Virus record (IMG/VR): IMGVR_UViG_3300023171_000001
Location: 1-55,453 of that record
Direction: 5' to 3' (one strand)
DNA: 55,453 nt
Source of the DNA: a virus
Lineage: Duplodnaviria; Caudoviricetes
Both the position numbers and the translations under genes were made by a program. The notes beneath the pieces were generated by a model. That model was not told the DNA's origin, ran no database searches, and saw only the letters and a program-made list of their open reading frames with translations. Shown here piece by piece: positions 472-55,453 of the stretch; positions within the stretch are counted from its first letter, which is position 1, and every line of letters starts with the position of its first letter.

Positions 472-673
472 CTGCGAAAAGGAAACCAGGCCAAAGTTTA
501 TGTGGAAGGTTTTCTTGCCTAATGGTGGCGGCATAATTTGCGAACATATTGTTTGTTTTGAATGCATCAAAAACAGCATTGCAGAACAAAAAGAAAATCC
601 CTGGTTAGATTTTTATGTAGAAATAGTATTGAATTTAAACGAAAAAAGAACGCATGAACCAAATTTCAAATGA
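458..673 (+). CDS. Small Zn-finger-like protein
   Basis: CDSC...CEH..CFEC Cys/His pattern; overlaps neighbours in operon fashion. Confidence 0.55.
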   Translation: MVCDSCEKETRPKFMWKVFLPNGGGIICEHIVCFECIKNSIAEQKENPWLDFYVEIVLNLNEKRTHEPNFK

Positions 674-2299: not shown

Positions 2300-2681
2300 A
2301 ACCGTCCAGTGTGCAAAATGCCCCTGGAAGGTAGGCACCAACCCGTACGAAATTCCGAACGGATATGACGAAGAAAAACATAAGGCCTTAGCAAGAACTT
2401 GTTCTTCAGGTATTGAACATTTGGGGGTTGGTGTCTTGCCTGTAATGTCTTGCCACGAAACGCATAATGACTATTGTGTTGGCTGGTTGCATAATCAACT
2501 GGGAAACGGCAACAACATTGCCTTACGTGTCAAAATGATGGGCTATACGCCTTTTAAGCTGGTGGTGATTGGTAAGCAGCACAAAGTTTTTGCCGACACC
2601 TTACCAACTGCGAAACATTTGAATGATTTTATTAACTCAAAACGGAAAAGCAATGCCGAAAATAAAAAGCTGGTCGCCTAG
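2277..2681 (+). CDS. Cys/His-rich conserved phage protein (DUF6283-like)
   Basis: CAKCPW...MSCHE....CVGWL..Q....NNIALR motif. Confidence 0.6.
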   Translation: MEKKSLNKTVQCAKCPWKVGTNPYEIPNGYDEEKHKALARTCSSGIEHLGVGVLPVMSCHETHNDYCVGWLHNQLGNGNNIALRVKMMGYTPFKLVVIGKQHKVFADTLPTAKHLNDFINSKRKSNAENKKLVA

Positions 2682-6492: not shown

Positions 6493-6545
6493 ATGTAAAT
6501 ATAATTTGACTTACATTTGCATACCAAAATCAAAACGAAAAAGAA
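6488..6545 (+). promoter_or_regulatory. Bacteroidetes-type promoter with TGTAA-N12-TTACA operator and conserved leader
   Basis: TTTG (-33), TACATTTG (-7, 6512-6519), TGTAA 6494-6498 / TTACA 6511-6515, and leader AAACGAAAAAGAA 6533-6545. Confidence 0.7.
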
Positions 6546-6546
6546 A

Positions 6547-7305
6547 ATGACTATCAACGCAAAAAACAGCTTCAAAGAAGGGTGGATTATGCTGCACCAG
6601 CCTTTCGAGTTTGGCGAACTATCAAAGCCAATTCAAATGAAAACCGTTCTGTATGCCTATTCTGAAAGGCCTTTGTTCGATATAGAATTAACGCCTGAAG
6701 GGCGTGAAATACTTGACCATGCTGCGGAAGTGTTCAATTATGCAAGCCCGTTTAGTGGTGGGGCTGAATTGGTCGGTGGCTATCGTTGGGGGAAATATAT
6801 CGGAGAAGACCAGGACAAGTATGAAGACCGCTTTGTGTCACAGTATGACGAAATAACCAAACAGCATTGTATTGTGGAGGTTCACAAAGGCAATGCCGTA
6901 CAGTGTTTTATTGAAAAACAAACGGCTCGTTTCTATCCGAAAGAATATAGTGTTCTAAGCCGTGAAAGTTTTGAAACTGTACTTAATTCTGATGATTATT
7001 TCTTTATGGTGGAGAATGAAGAAGCCTTCAATTATAAACATATTCAAGATAAGGTTCATTATTTAAAAAGTCGTGGCGTTCCTAAGCACCTGGCAGAACG
7101 CTTTTCAAGTGCTGAAATGAAAGACAATGTTTGGTTTAAACCCAAACCCCCCATTCTTTCGATGTTTGCCCGTGACCATGAAATTTATTTGCCCGACCCT
7201 GATTATACCAAGTATTTTGAAGGGTACGGGATGGAATGCCCTAAATCTTTTTCAGCGTTCTTTGCTGAACATGGTATTGAAGTAGTTGAAGAAATGATTT
7301 TATAA
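6547..7305 (+). CDS. Hypothetical protein with a SufB/SufD-like C-terminal helix motif
   Basis: 253-codon ORF; DKVHYLKSRGVPKHLAERF resembles the (L)FYLxSRGI motif. Confidence 0.55.
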   Translation: MTINAKNSFKEGWIMLHQPFEFGELSKPIQMKTVLYAYSERPLFDIELTPEGREILDHAAEVFNYASPFSGGAELVGGYRWGKYIGEDQDKYEDRFVSQYDEITKQHCIVEVHKGNAVQCFIEKQTARFYPKEYSVLSRESFETVLNSDDYFFMVENEEAFNYKHIQDKVHYLKSRGVPKHLAERFSSAEMKDNVWFKPKPPILSMFARDHEIYLPDPDYTKYFEGYGMECPKSFSAFFAEHGIEVVEEMIL

Positions 7306-8075: not shown

Positions 8076-8307
8076 CTTTGTAAAAATTACACCTGTACCA
8101 GCTGGGAAGTACATGGTGATTATTAGTGATTATCCCAAAGACAAGAATGAACAATTCCTTGACCAAAACAACATTCCTTTACGCAAGTTCTGGCGAAGGA
8201 AAAGGATTTTCAAAGGCTTCAAGAATGCACAAAAGCATTTTGATAAGCTTAAAAATCAAGCATGGTCGAAGTTCTTTGTTGATAACAATATCATTCATCA
8301 AAATTAA
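8056..8307 (+). CDS. Hypothetical basic protein
   Basis: ORF in operon. Confidence 0.6.
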   Translation: MEIQRLDFVKITPVPAGKYMVIISDYPKDKNEQFLDQNNIPLRKFWRRKRIFKGFKNAQKHFDKLKNQAWSKFFVDNNIIHQN

Positions 8308-12304: not shown

Positions 12305-12367
12305 CCTTTTTTGATTGTTCTTTAATTTTTCATACTTTTAATTTTTTAAACCCCCAAATTTCGTACT

Positions 12368-12723: not shown

Positions 12724-12766
12724 AAAAAGAAGCGGTAACTGATTCACAGTTGCCGCTTCTTTTTTG
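12724..12766 (+). terminator. Rho-independent terminator (bidirectional)
   Basis: AAAAAGAAGCGGTAACTG-attca-CAGTTGCCGCTTCTTTTTT. Confidence 0.85.
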
Positions 12767-12833: not shown

Positions 12834-13370
12834 ATGGATAACTCTGAAAATATTCCAAACGACGTAGAAAAGAAAATTGGAGGCATACAAAAAAGAAGGC
12901 CGAATGTTAAAAAAGAAATCTGTGAATATATTGCGGATGGCTTGAACTTCAAACAGGCAATGGCAAAGGCTGGTATTTCACACCAAACTTTCAACAATTG
13001 GCAACGGGACGACGCTGTTTTTACGGCTGCGATCAACACCGCTTTGTTGGCTCAAAACAGTGCGATAAGGGCTTATGCACGTGCTAGTCTTGTGTATCTG
13101 GTACAAATCCAGGACGTGGAAGAAGTTACTTCTGAATTTGATATTGGCAAGGATAAGGACGGGAAAGACGTTGAAGTCTTGACTAAAAGAAAGGTTACTA
13201 GGAAAAAGATGTTGCCACCAGCTGCACTTATTCAATATGCATTGAATAATCTTGAACCTGAAACTTTTGCGGATAGACATGATCTAACCTCAAAAGGTGA
13301 AGGCATCAACAACGGTTTCTTAGAATTGTATAAACAAGCCATGAATGCCAATGACAAACCAGTTAAGTAA
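12834..13370 (+). CDS. terS: Terminase small subunit
   Basis: N-terminal HTH (ICEYIADG....A...AGISHQTFNNW), KKMLPP.A...Y.LNN..PE.F.DR and DLTSKG motifs; directly upstream of terL. Confidence 0.8.
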   Translation: MDNSENIPNDVEKKIGGIQKRRPNVKKEICEYIADGLNFKQAMAKAGISHQTFNNWQRDDAVFTAAINTALLAQNSAIRAYARASLVYLVQIQDVEEVTSEFDIGKDKDGKDVEVLTKRKVTRKKMLPPAALIQYALNNLEPETFADRHDLTSKGEGINNGFLELYKQAMNANDKPVK

Positions 13371-13389
13371 AAAGAAAGATGATAGATCA

Positions 13390-15027
13390 ATGAATTACAA
13401 TCAAATGATCTCATCTCAATCCCAAAAAACCAATAGGGTAAAAAAAGCTAATGGTACCATTACACAAGAACTTTTGAATGATTTTATACGCCAGAAGTGG
13501 CGGCAGTGGAAAAATGACTGGGTACTATTTGCAACTGAAGTTTTTGGCGTGGTACTTGACCCTGAACAAGCTGAAATTCTTCGAGCCGTACAAGTTTACC
13601 CTATGGTTTCGGTTACTTCAGGGACTTCAAGGGGAAAGGACTTCGTTTCTGCCATTGCGGGTTTGTGCTTTATGTATTTAACGCCAGAATTTGACGATCT
13701 GATGAATATGGTGAAAAATACGAAGGTGGCCATGACTGCACCAACCCACAGGCAAGTCAAGAATATCATGCAGCCTGAATTCTCCCGCAATTTCAAGGCC
13801 GCAGCCCGTCGGGGATTTCCTTTAAATGGTCGCTTGGTTGGGTCTGATATTCGTACTAATTCAGAAGAATGGTTTCTAACTGCCTTTACTGCCGATGCTA
13901 ACAATGAGGAAGCCTGGTCTGGTTTCCATGCTGCCAATACTATGTTCATTGTTACAGAAGCTTCAGGTATTTCAGACAAAACATTTGAAGCTATTGAAGG
14001 AAATTTGCAAGGTAATTCCAGAATCCTTTTGGTTTTCAATCCTAATAATTTGACGGGATATGCTGCCAAATCTCAAAGGGGTGACAGGTGGAAGAAGTTT
14101 AGGCTTAATTCTTTGAATGCTCAAAACGTTATTGCAAAAAAGGAAGTTATTACTGGTCAGGTGAATTACGAATGGGTAATTGACAAACTTACTGCCTGGT
14201 GTACGCAGATTACAAAAGAACAGTTTTCTGATGAATATGATGATTTCGTTTTTGAAGGAAAATATTACAGGCCTGAAGACATTTTTCGGAGGAAAGTATT
14301 AGGCAAGTTTCCAAAGGTTTCTGAATCAAAACTTATTCCTGAAAGCTGGATTCTGGCGGCAAATAAACGCTGGCTTGAATACAAAGATTTAGATAATTTG
14401 TCAAGCAAGCCTTTGACGTTAGGCGTTGACGTTGCTGGTAATGGTCGGGATAATTCCCTTTATGTGAAGCGTTACCAAAATTACGTTGCTTCCTTCAAGG
14501 TACTAAACTTTAAGCTGGAAGAAATTCACATGGCCTTTGCTGGAATGATCTTGAACGAACTAAGGCAGCATTCTAATTCAATAGCACATATTGACAACAT
14601 AGGGGAAGGTGCTGGTGTTTATGCCAGATTGATAGAAATGCTAAAAGAATGGGGTTCAGGTAATGAAGGAAGGGCTTATTCATGCAAATATTCACATTCT
14701 GCTAAAGATTCTGAAGGCCGTGAATTAAGCGACTACCTCAACCAGTATAATTTCGAGAACAAAAGAGCATATCTTTTTTGGGCAGTGCGTGACTGGCTTG
14801 ACCCTAGAAACGGCATGAATGCCATGCTACCACCAAACGAACTATTCCTTGAAGAAGCGATGGAAATTGAATACTTCTTTAAATCTAACGGGAAAATTGC
14901 AATAGAACCAAAGGACGACATCAAAAAACGCCTGGGTAGATCAACGGATTATTTTGACGCATTGGCTAATAGTTTCAATTCTGACAGTAAAAATGTACTT
15001 ACAGATAACATTTTAGATTACTTTTAA
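13390..15027 (+). CDS. terL: Terminase large subunit
   Basis: Walker A-like SGTSRGKD, TAPT..QV, Walker B-like FIVTEASG, NP coupling motif, RNaseH-like LGVDVA..G.D and STDYFDALA. The start may be 13345. Confidence 0.95.
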   Translation: MNYNQMISSQSQKTNRVKKANGTITQELLNDFIRQKWRQWKNDWVLFATEVFGVVLDPEQAEILRAVQVYPMVSVTSGTSRGKDFVSAIAGLCFMYLTPEFDDLMNMVKNTKVAMTAPTHRQVKNIMQPEFSRNFKAAARRGFPLNGRLVGSDIRTNSEEWFLTAFTADANNEEAWSGFHAANTMFIVTEASGISDKTFEAIEGNLQGNSRILLVFNPNNLTGYAAKSQRGDRWKKFRLNSLNAQNVIAKKEVITGQVNYEWVIDKLTAWCTQITKEQFSDEYDDFVFEGKYYRPEDIFRRKVLGKFPKVSESKLIPESWILAANKRWLEYKDLDNLSSKPLTLGVDVAGNGRDNSLYVKRYQNYVASFKVLNFKLEEIHMAFAGMILNELRQHSNSIAHIDNIGEGAGVYARLIEMLKEWGSGNEGRAYSCKYSHSAKDSEGRELSDYLNQYNFENKRAYLFWAVRDWLDPRNGMNAMLPPNELFLEEAMEIEYFFKSNGKIAIEPKDDIKKRLGRSTDYFDALANSFNSDSKNVLTDNILDYF

Positions 15028-15041
15028 GCTATCTTTGTGCA

Positions 15042-15128
15042 AAGACTACTATGCGGTTCATTACTAAATGGCTGTTCTTTTTCGTTTATAGAATGATTAA
15101 AAGCCCCGTTTCCTAAACAGGGCTTTTT
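15042..15128 (+). ncRNA. Candidate small RNA antisense to the conserved early-gene leader
   Basis: Own -7 promoter TATCTTTG (15030-15037) and terminator hairpin 15099-15128; no + strand ORF of note. Core GTTCTTTTTCGTTT (15074-15087) is complementary to 8 leaders. Confidence 0.5.
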
Positions 15129-15129
15129 T
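15099..15129 (+). terminator. Rho-independent terminator
   Basis: AAAAGCCCCGTTT-cct-AAACAGGGCTTTTTT. Confidence 0.8.
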
Positions 15130-15184
15130 GCGTTTAATCAATTGCGTTGTTTTTTTTCTTTTCTTTGTTAAAAAAAACATTCAA

Positions 15185-16705
15185 ATGAGAATTTCAGAAA
15201 TACAAACCAAACTAGGGAAAGAACCAGGCGAAACAATGATTTCAATTCTGGAACGAAACAAGGTAGTAGAAGTATTACCACTAGCCAGCCCCCAAGTACT
15301 AGATACTACGGTTGTTTATGGTGACAGCAAGAAGGAGGCAAAAAAACAATATCATGTCCAAAGCCATGAAGTTTTTAGTCGAACCAAACGCCAGGACAAG
15401 CTTGTAAAAGCCAAAGACGACAAAGGCGTTGAAAATATGAAAATTATTTCTGTCAATCGTATAGGTGTAGCTATTCAGAAAAAGATTGTAAATACTTCAG
15501 TTTCTTTTCTGTTTGGAAATCCTGTAAGCGTATCGGCTAATACTGAAAACGATGGCCAGGTTGCTATATTGGCAGCACTCAAAAAAGTGTTTAGCAAAAA
15601 CAGAATAGATACCTTCAACCGTGCCGCAGCCAAAGACCTTTTCCGATCTTGTGAGATTGCAGAAATTTGGTTTACTATCAAAGAAAAGGAAAAAAATACT
15701 TATTACGGCTTTCCTTCTGACTGGCGAATTAAGGTAAAACTGGCATCAAATTGGCTTGGTGATGAATTATATCCTTTGTTTGATGAAAATCAAGAAATGA
15801 TTGCTTTTGGCCGTAGATATACAGAAAATAATGACCAGGTTTTTGAAATATACACTTCTGACGAAATTGTCAGGATGAAGAAAACAAACGATTCTACAGA
15901 TTGGAAACAGGATGCAAAAATTGAAAACCAATTTAAAAAAATCCCTGTCAATTATGCAGTACAGGAGAATGTAGAATGGGCAGATGTAGAATCTTCTATT
16001 TGTAGATTAGAAATGGTTATGTCAAACTTTGCTGATACAAACGACTATCATGCAAGCCCGAAAATATTCATCAAAGGCAAGCTTGAAGGGTTCAGTCAAA
16101 AAGGTGAAACTGGTTCAATCCTTCAAGGTGGTATTGATTCAGATATGAAATACGTGACCTGGGAAAATGCACCACATTCAGTCAAAACAGAAATAGAAAA
16201 TTTGTATGAAATAATCTATTCTATGACGCAAACCCCGAACCTGTCATTTGAGAATTTAAAAAAGCTTTCAATTGGAAATGTTAGCGGCAAAACTCTGGAA
16301 TTCTTGTTCCTGGATTCACAGTTGAAGGTGATGGAGAAAAGGGAAATCTTTGACGCTTATCTTGATCGCAGAAATAGTATAGTTTTATCAATCCTTACAA
16401 GTATCAACCCAGCCTTTAAAAAAGAAGTTGATAACATGGAAATACAGGCTTCTATTGTACCATTCACTATTTTGGACAAAGCTGCGGAACTTGAATTCCT
16501 TCAAAAAGCTAATGGCGGCAAAAAGGTTTTGTCACAAAAATCCAGCGTTCTATTAGCTAATATTACCAGCGACCCAGAGGAAGAATACGAATTAATTCTT
16601 GCTGAAGAAAAAGAAGAAGCTGAAGCAGCTGCGAAGGTTGCGGCAGAAGCTGCAAAGGCCGCATCATCGAAGAAAAAAGAAGAATCAGTAATAGAAGAAA
16701 AATAG
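15185..16705 (+). CDS. Portal protein (SPP1 gp6-like)
   Basis: KKIVNTSVSFLFGNPV, KIPVNY, SNFADTNDYHASP, KYVTWE and SGKTL.FLF motifs; follows terL. Confidence 0.92.
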   Translation: MRISEIQTKLGKEPGETMISILERNKVVEVLPLASPQVLDTTVVYGDSKKEAKKQYHVQSHEVFSRTKRQDKLVKAKDDKGVENMKIISVNRIGVAIQKKIVNTSVSFLFGNPVSVSANTENDGQVAILAALKKVFSKNRIDTFNRAAAKDLFRSCEIAEIWFTIKEKEKNTYYGFPSDWRIKVKLASNWLGDELYPLFDENQEMIAFGRRYTENNDQVFEIYTSDEIVRMKKTNDSTDWKQDAKIENQFKKIPVNYAVQENVEWADVESSICRLEMVMSNFADTNDYHASPKIFIKGKLEGFSQKGETGSILQGGIDSDMKYVTWENAPHSVKTEIENLYEIIYSMTQTPNLSFENLKKLSIGNVSGKTLEFLFLDSQLKVMEKREIFDAYLDRRNSIVLSILTSINPAFKKEVDNMEIQASIVPFTILDKAAELEFLQKANGGKKVLSQKSSVLLANITSDPEEEYELILAEEKEEAEAAAKVAAEAAKAASSKKKEESVIEEK

Positions 16706-17428: not shown

Positions 17429-17485
17429 GGGCAGACAGAAAAACAATACAAGGGCTATTTATTAACCCTTTTATTTTTTTCTCAA

Positions 17486-21291: not shown

Positions 21292-21318
21292 GAATCTACT
21301 GGCTAATTTATTAACCTG

Positions 21319-21347
21319 AAGCCCTCGAATATTCGGGGGCTTTTTTT
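21319..21347 (+). terminator. Rho-independent terminator
   Basis: AAGCCCTCGAA-ta-TTCGGGGGCTTTTTTT. Confidence 0.85.
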
Positions 21348-21358
21348 CTAAAAAAGAC

Positions 21359-43335: not shown

Positions 43336-43671
43336 TTATAAAGAAGTTATTTGAAACGTATGAAAACTAATGATAGAATCTTTTTCAAGGTCTGTCACTC
43401 TGATTAGGTCGTCTTTAGGTGCAGCATTTGAAAGTGCTTTTATTCTGCGGGTTGTGATTTCTCCCGTTTTGATTTTCGCAAACGTAACAACACCAGCTAT
43501 TAAAGCCTTAGTTGCTTTCCAGCTTTCACGAAGTGCATTTCTCCAAGTTTCAAGGCTTCTTTCAAAACCTTCCTTGATAAGACGGGTATAAATAAAAACC
43601 GCACGTTTTGCAGAGTTTGAAAGGTTAATTTGGGCTTGTTGTAATTTAGTTAACTGAATTGAAGTTTCCAT
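43336..43671 (-). CDS. WYL_2/DUF2693-like SH3-fold protein
   Basis: ALR.SW...K.L..GVV.F.K..TGEI..R ... DLEK....SF; first gene after the 43.7 kb promoter. Confidence 0.55.
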   Translation of the reverse strand: METSIQLTKLQQAQINLSNSAKRAVFIYTRLIKEGFERSLETWRNALRESWKATKALIAGVVTFAKIKTGEITTRRIKALSNAAPKDDLIRVTDLEKDSIISFHTFQITSL

Positions 43672-43677
43672 TTGATT

Positions 43678-43733
43678 GTTCTTTTTTCGTTTTGGTGATG
43701 TAAAATAAGTAAATAAAAAGTAATTGTACAAGT
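43678..43733 (-). promoter_or_regulatory. Promoter and conserved leader for the recombination/replication operon
   Basis: On the - strand, cTTG-N20-TTATTTTA has the same spacing as the other early promoters; leader AAACGAAAAAAGAAC at 43692-43678. Confidence 0.55.
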
Positions 43734-43783
43734 AGTTGTTGAATTATTTTTTTTAAACTTCTAAAAATTATTATCTTTGTCAA

Positions 43784-44029: not shown

Positions 44030-44555
44030 ACGGGCATTTTTTGTTTTTTCTTTAAAAAAAATATTTCTTTTTTATTTGATTTTTCAAAATATGGGTTTTC
44101 TCACGTGTGTACGTGTACGCCTGCGTTTTTGTGTATAATAAAATATTTTAAAGAAAAAGATTCTCTTTTTCTTTTTCTTCTCTTGGTTAGTTCTCTTAGC
44201 TTCTTCTTCTTTTGGTTACTTTTCTTCTTCTTCGTTTCTCTTATTAACCTTCTCTTTTTTTCTTTGTCTCTTTTAGCTATAAAAAACATGAAAAATTTGA
44301 CTAAAAAACCAGCTTCAAGGCCTGTCAAAAACGTAGCAGCTTGAAACTAAAGAAACTCGCTGATTATCAACCAGTTAAGCCCTAAATAAAAGCAATAAAA
44401 AGTCAGACCTAAAACCAAAAGAACCGTCAATATTTGAATCAATCTAGGTGTCAAATTTTGGGTACCTAGATTGACATTCTTCAAAGTTATCCACATTTTG
44501 AAGTTGCCATGTTTGCAAACGACCTTGCAAATGTACATTGCAAACGTGCAAAGCA
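44030..44555. other. Putative replication origin
   Basis: Perfect DnaA box TTATCCACA 44487-44495, an 11-bp inverted repeat (44439-44449/44464-44474), GTCAA-W-rich-TTTG iteron-like elements, and an extreme pyrimidine/AT-rich tract 44030-44280. Confidence 0.55.
44511..44553. repeat. TGCA repeat cluster; left arm of an inverted repeat
   Basis: TGCA at 44514, 44526, 44539 and 44547. TTGCAAACGTGCAAA (44538-44552) is the exact reverse complement of 45359-45373. Confidence 0.85.
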
Positions 44556-46351: not shown

Positions 46352-46658
46352 TTTGCTTTTGTAGTTTTTTGATTTTCCTTTCTACGATTTTCTTTGAAGC
46401 TAATAATTGGTTGCATCTTGGAAGGTATTGGCCTTTCTCAAACCAATAGGCACCTTTTGCTTCTTTCGTGTACCTTTTCCACAAAGTTGTAACTTCCGAA
46501 AAGTCAAGCTTGTGCCGAATCCTGAAATACAAGCAAAATCCGCTTTGTGTAGCTATTAGAATGTTTGTGTCGGCCATTCCGTTCCAGGCCTTTAAATAGT
46601 CTTCTATTGCCAGGTTGTAGAAGATTAATTCTGTTTCTAATGTCATTCGTTTTGTCAT
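46338..46658 (-). CDS. Hypothetical protein, paralog family A
   Basis: GFCLYF..RH...FSEV.TLW...AYWFEKG....R...L; preceded by the leader AAACGAAAAAGGAA. Confidence 0.8.
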   Translation of the reverse strand: MTKRMTLETELIFYNLAIEDYLKAWNGMADTNILIATQSGFCLYFRIRHKLDFSEVTTLWKRYTKEAKGAYWFEKGQYLPRCNQLLASKKIVERKIKKLQKQNGNS

Positions 46659-46814
46659 TTCCTTTTTCGTTTTTTATTGTGTTTATAAATAATGTATCAT
46701 TACAACTGTTTTTTGTGTTACTAAATAGTTGATATTCAATGACTTAGTGTTTGAATGATAGAAAATAATGTACAATTACATCACTTAAAATCAAACTGAA
46801 CAAATGCATGACCG

Positions 46815-47771
46815 TTATATTGCCCCGCAGCCTTCACCAAATGCACCAGGTGGCAATTGCCACACGTCGGTAAATATCGGTAAATAGTAAATGGTTGAAG
46901 TAGCCGCAGCGATTAATTCAGGTGTTAAGAATTGATAAGGCACACCTTTAGATATTAATTCAGAAAGCGATTCTGTACGCTTCATAGTTACGCCAAAACC
47001 TTTTTCGTAATTGATAAGTATTTCAGCTTTTGAAGGTGATATTGCGGCAGCTGTAGCAAACTGATCTTTGTTACCAAAAATACAGAATTTGCAGCTGCAA
47101 CGACTGAAGCCCAGATAATAACAAGGGTGTACTAAGATTTTCCAACGTTCAATAATTGCCCAAACTTCACCTTCCAACCAGTCACGTACAGGACGGCAAC
47201 GGTATACTTCACGATTCTTGCCAAATGTTCTATCTGGTTCAAATGTTTTGTACTTCGCACGTGCAGGACTTTCTTCACCACGTTCGCCAGATAACACCAA
47301 AGTTCTGATTCCTTTGAATCGTTCCTGGTTAACAATAGCAGCGGCACACGGGTCAATTTTGAGGTATGGCGAACAATATCTGGTCTTTAGGTCAGGCGAT
47401 ATTTGCGGGAACTTCCTTCTGGTAGATAGTTTTCCCCTGGTACCTCCGATTTGCATACGGCCTTCAGGCGTTTCAAATACTGTAGGGGCTGTTAGGCTGT
47501 TTTCTCTCAACATTTCACGCTCAAACCCGCCAACCTTCCAAGAAAAATAAATGGGAACGCCAAAAGCTTCTGCAAATTTTCTGCAATAGTCTTCTGTGCA
47601 TTCCCAGTCAAATAATATTTTACCTTCACCGTCAACTAAATGGTGCCACAACTCTATTTTAGATTTGTCAACGCCATTTTCTAACAGCCATAAAAAAGAA
47701 GCAATTGAATCTTTGCCAGCACTAAAAGTAACAAGATATTTGTCAAAGGAATTTAGTTCTAACAGGTTCAT
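46815..47771 (-). CDS. PAPS reductase/DndC-like (PP-loop, Fe-S) family protein
   Basis: FSAGKDS PP-loop, RYCS..LKI, GERGEES.AR, HPCY.LG.SRCSC.FC. Confidence 0.9.
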   Translation of the reverse strand: MNLLELNSFDKYLVTFSAGKDSIASFLWLLENGVDKSKIELWHHLVDGEGKILFDWECTEDYCRKFAEAFGVPIYFSWKVGGFEREMLRENSLTAPTVFETPEGRMQIGGTRGKLSTRRKFPQISPDLKTRYCSPYLKIDPCAAAIVNQERFKGIRTLVLSGERGEESPARAKYKTFEPDRTFGKNREVYRCRPVRDWLEGEVWAIIERWKILVHPCYYLGFSRCSCKFCIFGNKDQFATAAAISPSKAEILINYEKGFGVTMKRTESLSELISKGVPYQFLTPELIAAATSTIYYLPIFTDVWQLPPGAFGEGCGAI

Positions 47772-47830
47772 TTTCTTCTTCGTTTCGTAATAATGAAACA
47801 AAGTAAGTCAAAAAGGCATTACAAAACAAG
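47772..47830 (-). promoter_or_regulatory. Early promoter with operator and conserved leader
   Basis: The - strand reads cTTGttttgtaatgcctttttgacTTACTTTG; operator 47802-47823; leader AAACGAAGAAGAAA. Confidence 0.75.
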
Positions 47831-47837
47831 TAAAAGG

Positions 47838-51671: not shown

Positions 51672-51833
51672 TTAAATTGTTACTGAATAAATACTAGCCT
51701 CCCCGTAAAAGGTCGCTTCTTTGGCCGTAAAAAAAATGCTGGTGGTTTTTAGGAACTTGCGTTTTTGCGGTTCCTTCTGGTTTGCAAGATTGCAAAGTTG
51801 TATTGCAATGCTGCGTTTTTGCGTGTTGCTCAT
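51672..51833 (-). CDS. 53-aa early protein (not in ORF track)
   Basis: MSNTQKRSIAIQLCNLANQ...; lies directly after the promoter and conserved leader 51837-51851. Confidence 0.65.
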   Translation of the reverse strand: MSNTQKRSIAIQLCNLANQKEPQKRKFLKTTSIFFTAKEATFYGEASIYSVTI

Positions 51834-51836
51834 GTT

Positions 51837-51897
51837 GTTCTTTTTTCGTTTTGTAATAATGAAACAAAGTAAGTCAAAAAAGAATTACAAGTCAAGC
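51837..51897 (-). promoter_or_regulatory. Early promoter with operator and conserved leader
   Basis: The - strand reads cTTGacttgtaattcttttttgacTTACTTTG; operator 51868-51889; near-identical to the 47.8 kb promoter. Confidence 0.75.
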
Positions 51898-51905
51898 TTT
51901 TTTGT

Positions 51906-54112: not shown

Positions 54113-54376
54113 TTAATAAGCTAATTGTGAAAGGTAATTGTAACAAGCAATTGCATCCGCAAAAGCGTCTTCAATGAAAGAAACGATTTCTTCAATCGTT
54201 GTGCTTTCTGTGATATTTGCGAAGTCTGAAAACGGCATTACATCACCGTTTGATATAGAAGAAGGATATTCAACTACAACGTTATTGTCTACTAACTCGC
54301 AAACAAATCCGTCTACTGAAGAAAGATTAAATTCTACTTGATTTTTTGCTTCTTGAAATAATGTAATTGCGTTCAT
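54113..54376 (-). CDS. Small highly acidic early protein
   Basis: 87 aa with about 14 D/E against 1 K; first gene after the leftward early promoter. Confidence 0.75.
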   Translation of the reverse strand: MNAITLFQEAKNQVEFNLSSVDGFVCELVDNNVVVEYPSSISNGDVMPFSDFANITESTTIEEIVSFIEDAFADAIACYNYLSQLAY

Positions 54377-54525
54377 GTTCTTGTTTCGTTTAAATGATGA
54401 TACAAAGTAAGTCAATTAATACTTACAAGTCAAGGAATATTTGATTTATTTTTCAAAATAAATGTAATTCAAAAAAGTATTACATTTTACTTGTTTTGTA
54501 AGTCTGTTTTTGTTTACATTTGCAA
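54377..54525. promoter_or_regulatory. Divergent early promoter region with three operator-like palindromes
   Basis: Leftward cTTG-N20-TTACTTTG and rightward TTG..TACATTTG (54515-54522); (T/A)GTAA-N12-TTACA at 54406-54427, 54463-54484 and 54497-54518. Confidence 0.75.
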
Positions 54526-54811: not shown

Positions 54812-55453
54812 AGAACAATTCACTGTAGAATTCCAGGGTCGGCACATAAATTTCAATTCAGTTGGAATTGCATCTTCTTTGTGTAGTGAAATCTTTAAAG
54901 AAGGTATACCTGAAGACTTTGCTAAAATATTTTCTAGTCATTTGAATGGTGCTTATAAAGATCAAAATACTTTTGATTTTTCAATTGCAAAATTTAGTCT
55001 TTCAGAAAATTCAGAAGACAAAAAGGCTATTTTCTTGAAATTTAATATTTATTTCAAAGGAAAACCTTTTATGACTAGGCATATTGAAATGACTGAAGAA
55101 ATGGTTTTGCAACTTTTGGACGCTTTCAGGATTTGTTCCCAAAATTACCAGGGTGAAAACTTTACGGCTTTTATGGTTGGTGTTTATATGGCTGGCCAGG
55201 CTGAACAACTTAAATTTGTTTGTTTGCTAATGACAAAGCTTTGTGAGGTTTGGAACGCTGGAATAGAAGCTTCAGAAGTTGGCATGACTTGCATTTGTAC
55301 TTCTTTCAAAATGGAATTAAAGAAGCCGCACGAATTCAATTATTCTTTCAAACTTAAACTTGAAGGTTTTGAAAATCCTTTTGAATATGGTTTTAAACTT
55401 CAGTTTGCCGAAATGCCGCATTTTCATTATGTCACTAAGTTCCAGCAACTAAT
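54798..55453 (+). CDS. Hypothetical protein (~250 aa) spanning the circular junction; ends at TAA 222-224
   Basis: ATG at 54798 overlaps the end of the HTH gene. The frame is open to the window end and continues through bases 3-224 (HEFNYSFKLKLEGF...ARDN*). It is absent from the ORF track because the junction splits it. Confidence 0.85.
   Translation, partial: MKAAKEQFTVEFQGRHINFNSVGIASSLCSEIFKEGIPEDFAKIFSSHLNGAYKDQNTFDFSIAKFSLSENSEDKKAIFLKFNIYFKGKPFMTRHIEMTEEMVLQLLDAFRICSQNYQGENFTAFMVGVYMAGQAEQLKFVCLLMTKLCEVWNAGIEASEVGMTCICTSFKMELKKPHEFNYSFKLKLEGFENPFEYGFKLQFAEMPHFHYVTKFQQL
55327..55453. repeat. 127-bp direct repeat of the contig start (copy 2)
   Basis: Identical to 1-127. Confidence 0.97.

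Follow-up and report, generated by a model that had tools for sequence, protein, structure and literature searches.

Does the spacer between the large terminase gene (terL) and the portal gene of this phage encode a small regulatory RNA (sRNA) that silences other phage genes? The first-pass annotation proposed such an sRNA at this locus, antisense to a translation-initiation leader that is shared by at least eight early or middle genes. Here, we describe the spacer and the leader motif, weigh the proposed RNA against three other readings of the same sequence, and compare it with known phage regulators.

Genome organization and host

The window is the whole stretch of DNA that was analysed, a complete virus record of 55,453 bp with direct terminal repeats of 127 bp. 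Genes are located on the plus strand from about position 130 to 37,557 and again from 54,563 onward, and on the minus strand from 54,376 down to 37,607. The gene models are crude longest-ATG calls with two starts corrected by eye, and all counts given out of 83 depend on them. Neither tRNA nor tmRNA genes were found in the window. A search of the whole window against Rfam 15 returned no match at the gathering score, and the five weak matches around the terL–portal spacer are all far under the thresholds. A 24-nt inverted repeat, 92% complementary, connects the terminal repeat (33-56 and 55359-55382) with an internal site (8200-8223).

The named homologues of the terL protein belong to Fibrella, Emticicia, Pontibacter, Chryseobacterium and Prolixibacteraceae. 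Because all of these are Bacteroidota (lineages checked for two), the host of the phage is very probably a member of the Bacteroidota as well. The closest terL homologue among 5.8 billion proteins shares 64% identity, and the phage is therefore a singleton at the DNA level. No blastn match for the phage was found in the phage collection. Searches with terL in viral contigs and metagenomes, with DNA patterns from the spacer and from the promoter cassette described below, and with a 537-aa early protein revealed no close relative.

Architecture of the terL–portal spacer

The stop codon of terL at 15027 and the portal start at 15185 are separated by 157 non-coding nucleotides. The region comprises the following features.

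13345..15027, plus strand: terL (large terminase), a 560-aa ORF with 2036 homologues; the spacer starts past its stop codon
15030..15037, plus strand: TATCTTTG, candidate promoter box that fits the Bacteroidota -7 consensus TANNTTTG at every position
15051..15116, plus strand: 21-codon ORF covering the anti-leader, without homology or other support
15055..15061, plus strand: GGTTCAT, complement of ATGAACC at some gene starts
15074..15087, plus strand: anti-leader core GTTCTTTTTCGTTT, reverse complement of the leader consensus
15099..15129, plus strand: intrinsic terminator, with a hairpin at 15099-15127 (one internal mismatch) and six U at 15124-15129
15142..15167, plus strand: T-rich stretch with TTGNNTTG and TTTTCTTTG (the latter at 15159), candidate portal promoter
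15185..16705, plus strand: portal gene (Pfam SPP1_portal, E = 2e-42)

The coordinates and strings of the first-pass annotation were all correct when rechecked in the sequence. The terL protein has no match in Pfam, and one of its homologues carries the source annotation 'phage terminase large subunit-like'. The N-terminus of the portal protein is similar to the portal starts of two relatives, L014 and L030.

Folding bears out the intrinsic terminator that had been placed behind the candidate RNA. The GC-containing hairpin has a fold energy of -12.4 kcal/mol (z = -3.2), is present in a longer fold too, and its 3' arm runs into the six U. The hairpin folds on the minus strand as well, but just four U follow there. 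This terminator was identified by folding, and a simpler, stricter terminator scan had not listed 15099-15129. It lies 12 nt downstream of the anti-leader core, while the -7 box lies 37 nt upstream of the core. The body between TATCTTTG or the terL stop and the hairpin, 61-71 nt in length, shows no structure above chance (z = 0.12). The 21-codon ORF is probably not a gene, as such a length would be expected by chance in an AT-rich spacer. The likeness of the T-rich stretch at 15142-15167 to the repeated cassette was judged by eye only.

A sequence-specific leader precedes eight start codons

The motif to which the anti-leader core is complementary is enriched in the window, with 28 matches at two or fewer mismatches compared to 10.8 ± 3.1 in shuffled sequences, of which none in 100 reaches 28. 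Eight sense-oriented copies of this leader end 0-6 nt ahead of an ATG. They had been reported in the first-pass annotation, and all their positions and gaps agree with the sequence.

637..651, plus strand: leader of g654, 2 nt from the ATG at 654
2640..2650, plus strand: leader of g2653, one A-to-G change, 2 nt from the ATG at 2653, frame confirmed
6533..6545, plus strand: leader of g6547, 1 nt from the ATG at 6547, cassette upstream
43678..43692, minus strand: leader of g43671, 6 nt from the ATG at 43671, cassette upstream
46659..46672, minus strand: leader of g46658, abuts the ATG at 46658
47772..47785, minus strand: leader of g47771, abuts the ATG at 47771, PAPS-reductase-like gene, cassette upstream
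51837..51851, minus strand: leader of g51833, 3 nt from the ATG at 51833, cassette upstream
54377..54391, minus strand: leader of g54376, one A-to-C change, abuts the ATG at 54376, cassette upstream

With the exception of g47771, the leader genes have no family match (seven of eight). We infer from their position and promoter type that they are early or middle genes.

Five substitutions occur among the leaders. The first-pass annotation had described the internal deviations as A-to-G changes, which still allow G-U pairing, or as one extra base. This applies to three of the five substitutions, A-to-G at 2645, 46661 and 47778, which are compatible with G-U pairs and to that extent favour an RNA partner. 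The remaining two, at 2651 and 54383, are A-to-C changes that break the pairing and count against such a partner. Purine-keeping transitions would also be tolerable for an A/G-rich ribosome-binding element.

The start regions of this phage are generally rich in A and poor in G, with 27-58% A and 1-14% G at the individual positions from -20 to -1. At least ten A are found between -16 and -1 in 21 of the 83 start regions, and the eight leaders have 9-12 A there. According to the available part of a ribosome profiling study of Flavobacterium johnsoniae, initiation in this species makes no use of Shine-Dalgarno pairing and is favoured by adenines at -3, -6 and -11 to -14 (PMC6847099). Measured against that partial account, the eight leaders resemble a Bacteroidota start region in being A-rich over -1 to -16, G-poor and without a Shine-Dalgarno sequence directly before the ATG (PMC6847099). 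They differ from it in that specific C and G positions are kept in all eight copies. The leader takes the A-rich Bacteroidota start region to an extreme and is sequence-specific, with fixed C and G positions. Because A-richness alone needs no fixed C or G, some sequence-specific reader, be it a protein, an RNA or the ribosome, may exist.

On the minus strand, a purine-rich low-complexity stretch with AAGAAG repeats is located at 44160-44240. Within it, 13 nt of the g47771 leader recur in sense orientation away from start codons, a chance-like match.

A repeated promoter cassette accompanies the leader

Most leaders lie next to a promoter cassette, about 45 nt long, that recurs in the genome and combines a pair of TTGACTT-like words, spaced by roughly 20 nt, with a TTACTTTG or TACATTTG box.

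6493-6532, plus strand: cassette copy with leader
43693-43745, 47786-47837, 51852-51905 and 54392-54445, minus strand: cassette copies, each with leader
54480-54522, plus strand: cassette copy without leader, before an HTH regulator gene

With their TTG and TTACTTTG or TACATTTG boxes, the cassettes resemble the Bacteroidota -33/-7 promoter, as far as it is set out in the available part of the source (PMC6847099). In the alignment, the leader lies downstream of a cassette in five of eight cases (g6547, g43671, g47771, g51833 and g54376), and g654, g2653 and g46658 keep the motif without a cassette. As the motif begins 11-13 nt past the -7 box in four of the five cassettes, the leader would have to form most of a short 5' UTR. 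Conservation is higher in the motif than in the segment that joins it to the box, and three leaders stand without a cassette; the leader is thus a separate functional unit. In this genome, the evidence is firmer for the leader and the promoter cassette than for the sRNA reading of the spacer.

The segment 54377-54811 is a divergent control region in which cassette promoters point both ways. To its right lies the gene of an 82-aa HTH regulator (PHROG transcriptional regulator/repressor families), to its left the leader gene g54376.

The spacer as the proposed end of one transcription unit and start of the next

The best explanation of the spacer, which we regard as standing at about an even chance, is an ordinary terL 3' region followed by a terminator and a portal promoter, with a non-functional complement to the leaders. 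The terminase message would then reach into the spacer with its 3' UTR. The terminator at 15099-15129 would end or attenuate this message, and transcription of the portal gene probably starts anew from the T-rich stretch at 15142-15167. Bacteroidota ribosomes prefer A-rich start regions that lack a Shine-Dalgarno sequence, and the eight leaders are a real, sequence-specific variant of these. The 13-14 nt complement in the spacer would do no regulatory work and would be either fortuitous or an inherited match between U-rich and A-rich sequence.

The terminator after terL is not special in this respect, because the same kind sits in several late-region spacers on the plus strand: at 12726-12766 (-24.2 kcal/mol), 17448-17480 (-5.3 kcal/mol), 21314-21350 (-17.6 kcal/mol) and around 26500. 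Given these terminators, late transcription must repeatedly restart or read through. Two features of the layout count against this ordinary reading. The distance of 71 nt from the terL stop to the hairpin is longer than the roughly 22-47 nt in the other terminator spacers, and the -7 box, the unstructured body and the terminator make up a coherent unit of about 85 nt.

A possible anti-leader RNA as the alternative

The coherent unit would be accounted for by a functional anti-leader RNA that ends at 15129, pairs with positions -1 to -20 of the eight messages and blocks 30S binding. We consider such an RNA unlikely, and give the same standing to the accompanying proposals that it starts near 15043 or is cut from the terL message, and that shut-off sets in once the packaging genes are transcribed. 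The full regulatory claim, in which a late-expressed RNA (an sRNA of about 85 nt or the tail of the terminase message) jointly silences eight early or middle genes through the 14-nt motif, is decidedly unlikely. For the spacer as an sRNA gene, our verdict is that this reading is unproven and on balance unlikely. Of the features that define an sRNA, the terminator, which gives a predicted 3' end, is the one clearly present. The evidence on either side comes from the antisense match itself, the pairing energies, the promoter and the relatives.

The complementarity is real. As first described, the spacer core is the reverse complement of the leader motif over 13-14 nt of the consensus, and the leader core recurs without mismatch over 13 nt on the minus strand at 15075-15087. 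Under Markov models, the exact leader 13-mer is expected 0.007-0.04 times, and any 13-mer from the eight leader strings 0.16 times on both strands. When the leader class is held fixed, the expectation from shuffling for a 13-nt antisense spacer match to the eight leader start regions is 0.010, with two observed, and two such matches were obtained in none of 5000 shuffles. The expectation is 0.014 at the overall rate in the real sequence of relatives (2.68 million nt-strands), and leader-class words have no match in the 165,572 non-coding nt-strands of these relatives. The significance depends on the null model, however. For any spacer against any start region, a 13-nt antisense match arises in 17% of within-spacer shuffles and two matches in 1.6%. 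Allowing for the post-hoc choice of the motif, the antisense match corresponds to about p = 0.02-0.07, which is suggestive, not compelling.

The second of the two matches lies at 12311-12323 on the plus strand, in the spacer before g12368, and covers 13 nt (14 by eye) against positions -13 to -1 of g43671. It is counted in favour of an anti-leader RNA and may represent a second, gene-specific anti-start sequence. Because it covers mainly the gene-specific part of the g43671 start and lies in a T-rich stretch that appears cassette-like by eye, it is not strong independent support.

Matches of this kind are common in the genome. Among the 75 non-leader start regions, an exact antisense copy exists in the transcribed strand for 37 at 11 nt, 12 at 12 nt and 2 at 13 nt. 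A scan of the 55,414 transcribed 14-mers found 140 that reach at least eight start regions with at least ten contiguous pairs (maximum 16), and more than ten separate loci equal or beat the eight start regions of the candidate, which counts against it. The window contains 132 inverted repeats of at least 14 nt. Moreover, the ability to pair with many targets follows automatically, because the eight leaders resemble each other. Since U-rich spacers often pair with A-rich starts in such genomes, complementarity by itself says little in favour of an sRNA.

Pairing energies of the candidate RNA

An IntaRNA/RNAup-style check was approximated by duplex energies combined with opening energies. The 24-nt core region has a mean duplex energy of -15.8 kcal/mol over its top eight targets, compared to a shuffle mean of -12.3 kcal/mol, and none of 500 shuffles reaches this value. 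When the 61-nt RNA is paired with the 83 start regions, the top four duplexes all involve leader genes, and all eight leader genes rank among the top 12. Both results support a functional RNA. The mean energy of the candidate is equalled by 16 of 2310 24-nt windows of the genome, and about half of the 15 best windows listed simply consist of a start region in antisense.

The duplexes between core and leaders have energies of -10.8 to -14.0 kcal/mol in one calculation and of -9.9 to -13.6 kcal/mol in the one that yielded the net values below. Opening the 14-nt core would cost 4.5-6.7 kcal/mol, depending on the assumed 5' end. With both opening costs included, the net pairing energies are -8.3, -8.0, -6.5, -6.0, -5.7, -3.6, -2.6 and +1.5 kcal/mol. 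Three of the eight are weaker than -4 kcal/mol, and the modelled values are weak for an eight-fold regulation without a chaperone. To our knowledge, Hfq is absent from most Bacteroidota, which also counts against the RNA. The leader of g47771 (47772-47816, minus strand) is predicted to be sequestered, with an opening cost of 10.6 kcal/mol compared to 0.5-3.5 kcal/mol for the other seven.

An additional contact had been suggested between GGUUCAU, upstream of the core, and AUGAAC(C) at gene starts. The string is present at 15055-15061, but it adds little: ATGAAC starts nine of the 83 called genes, three of which are leader genes, and the flank alignments do not reach significance (g654, p = 0.17; g54376, p = 0.31).

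Promoter evidence at 15030

The perfect -7 element reported at 15030-15037 is present and, together with the terminator, is counted in favour of an anti-leader RNA. The consensus for the -7 element of the Bacteroidota -33/-7 promoter, taken from the available part of the source, is TANNTTTG (PMC6847099). Its weight as a promoter is another matter. The TANNTTTG pattern occurs at 68 sites in the window on both strands, compared to 81 ± 8.8 in shuffled sequences, and because it is no commoner than in these shuffles, a perfect box carries little weight. Neither TTG nor TTTG was found in 15000-15029, the 30 nt ahead of TATCTTTG. A Bacteroidota sigma-A promoter comprises a -33 TTTG and a -7 TANNTTTG at proper spacing, and of these the -7 element alone is present at 15030. 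The phage's own repeated cassette is likewise absent ahead of this box. A sigma-70 promoter scan is uninformative for this type of host. The box at chance frequency without a -33 TTG counts against a functional anti-leader RNA.

The spacer in related phages

The set of relatives consists of 80 loci with a terL identity of 54-61%, of which 71 have a portal match. The gap between terL and portal is at most 50 nt in 68 of these 71, often 8-35 nt or an overlap. Judged by these loci, the 157-nt spacer is specific to this lineage, and since nearly all relatives have the short gap, an RNA gene of this kind is not an ancestral trait. That 68 relatives lack the spacer and nothing similar recurs in the family counts against a functional RNA. 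The remaining three carry inserts of 530, 539 and 2447 nt between terL and portal.

L014, 10342-10876, plus strand: insert with two small ORFs, one Cys-rich
L030, 11515-12064, plus strand: insert with two small ORFs, one Cys-rich
L043, 7038-9231, minus strand: 2.4-kb gene block, two of its genes HTH-like by eye

These inserts identify the terL–portal junction as an insertion site. The leader is absent from the 80 distant relatives, with 17 matches at one or no mismatch in 1.34 Mb compared to eight in the 55-kb window. The 76 contigs with a leader-ATG pattern have one match each, consistent with chance. Among 38 dereplicated relatives, no excess of within-genome anti-start matches was found in spacers, with two in total, or 0.053 per locus compared to 0.033 across loci.

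A possible operator, relic or attenuator

The 13-nt copy could also be a feature at the DNA level or a historical one, namely an inverted operator for a phage DNA-binding protein that would recognize the motif where it stands between -7 box and ATG in early genes, or the relic leader of a minus-strand insert. We consider this improbable. The fixed distance of 11-13 nt between the -7 box and the motif in four cassettes would suit an operator as well as a leader, but the motif is not palindromic and its eight other copies all have one orientation relative to the gene. For a relic, the junction is a suitable place, as it takes up inserts in L043 (2.4 kb of minus-strand genes) and in L014 and L030 (about 0.5 kb each), and an ATGAACC follows 12 nt past the minus-strand copy. 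However, the sequences on either side of this copy resemble neither the cassettes nor the gene starts (lowest p among 16 tests 0.036, without correction), the minus-strand hairpin lies just 11 nt upstream of the copy and leaves no room for a promoter, and the minus-strand ATG opens a frame of 10 codons that is not a gene. A functional leader on the minus strand at 15075-15087 was rejected on account of this hairpin and the 10-codon frame. As a relic of a promoter-leader cassette, the minus-strand copy is unsupported, the flank alignments being non-significant.

A leader-attenuator for the structural operon, modelled on the lambda late promoter with its 6S RNA, in which a short RNA from a promoter at 15030 stops at the terminator unless a phage antitermination factor acts, would fit the order of -7 box, about 85 nt, terminator and long late operon as well as the further late-region terminators that must be read through too, but is very improbable, as the support for the promoter does not exceed chance, a search of the gene set brought up no antiterminator, the promoter-like stretch at 15142-15167 past the terminator makes read-through unnecessary, and the anti-leader match is left unexplained.

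Comparison with known regulators

Functionally, the closest analogue of the proposed RNA would be RegA of phage T4. RegA is a 122-aa protein that, according to the available part of the source, competes with the ribosome at the A-rich, unstructured starts of about 30 earlier messages (PMC3014915). The proposed logic is alike, with one late-acting phage factor addressing many A-rich initiation regions, as far as this partial account describes it (PMC3014915). Unlike RegA, the candidate here would be an RNA.

Mechanistically, the closest analogues would be the phage antisense RNAs such as P1 c4 and P4 CI, together with the terminator-proximal seeds of enterobacterial and lambda sRNAs. P1/P7 c4, P4 CI, lambda OOP and P22 sar are short phage RNAs with intrinsic terminators that pair with phage messages; c4 and CI work in trans and at more than one complementary site. 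Phage antisense immunity RNAs act on one operon, usually within lysogenic immunity. In contrast to the candidate, the targets of c4, CI, OOP and sar are not a start-region motif common to eight dispersed genes. The candidate shares with the enterobacterial and lambda sRNAs a seed just upstream of the terminator hairpin, the targeting of ribosome-binding regions and a possible origin from the 3' end of an mRNA. Enterobacterial sRNAs depend on Hfq or ProQ, and their ends are experimentally mapped. The candidate, by comparison, has an AU-rich seed, a weak net energy and a predicted 3' end. Base-pairing phage sRNAs of lambda are described in the available part of a preprint (10.1101/2024.10.31.621285).

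Limited keyword searches of the open literature found no multi-gene RNA regulon for translational shut-off in Bacteroidota phages. If the proposal were true, this phage would be the first of the Bacteroidota phages described to shut off the translation of several genes through an RNA. Such an RNA would correspond to the T4 RegA protein, but in a Bacteroidota host that does without Shine-Dalgarno sequences, and it would show how pairing regulates initiation where ribosomes ignore these sequences. The solid result is a singleton phage with a repeated early promoter cassette and a sequence-specific A-rich leader on eight genes.
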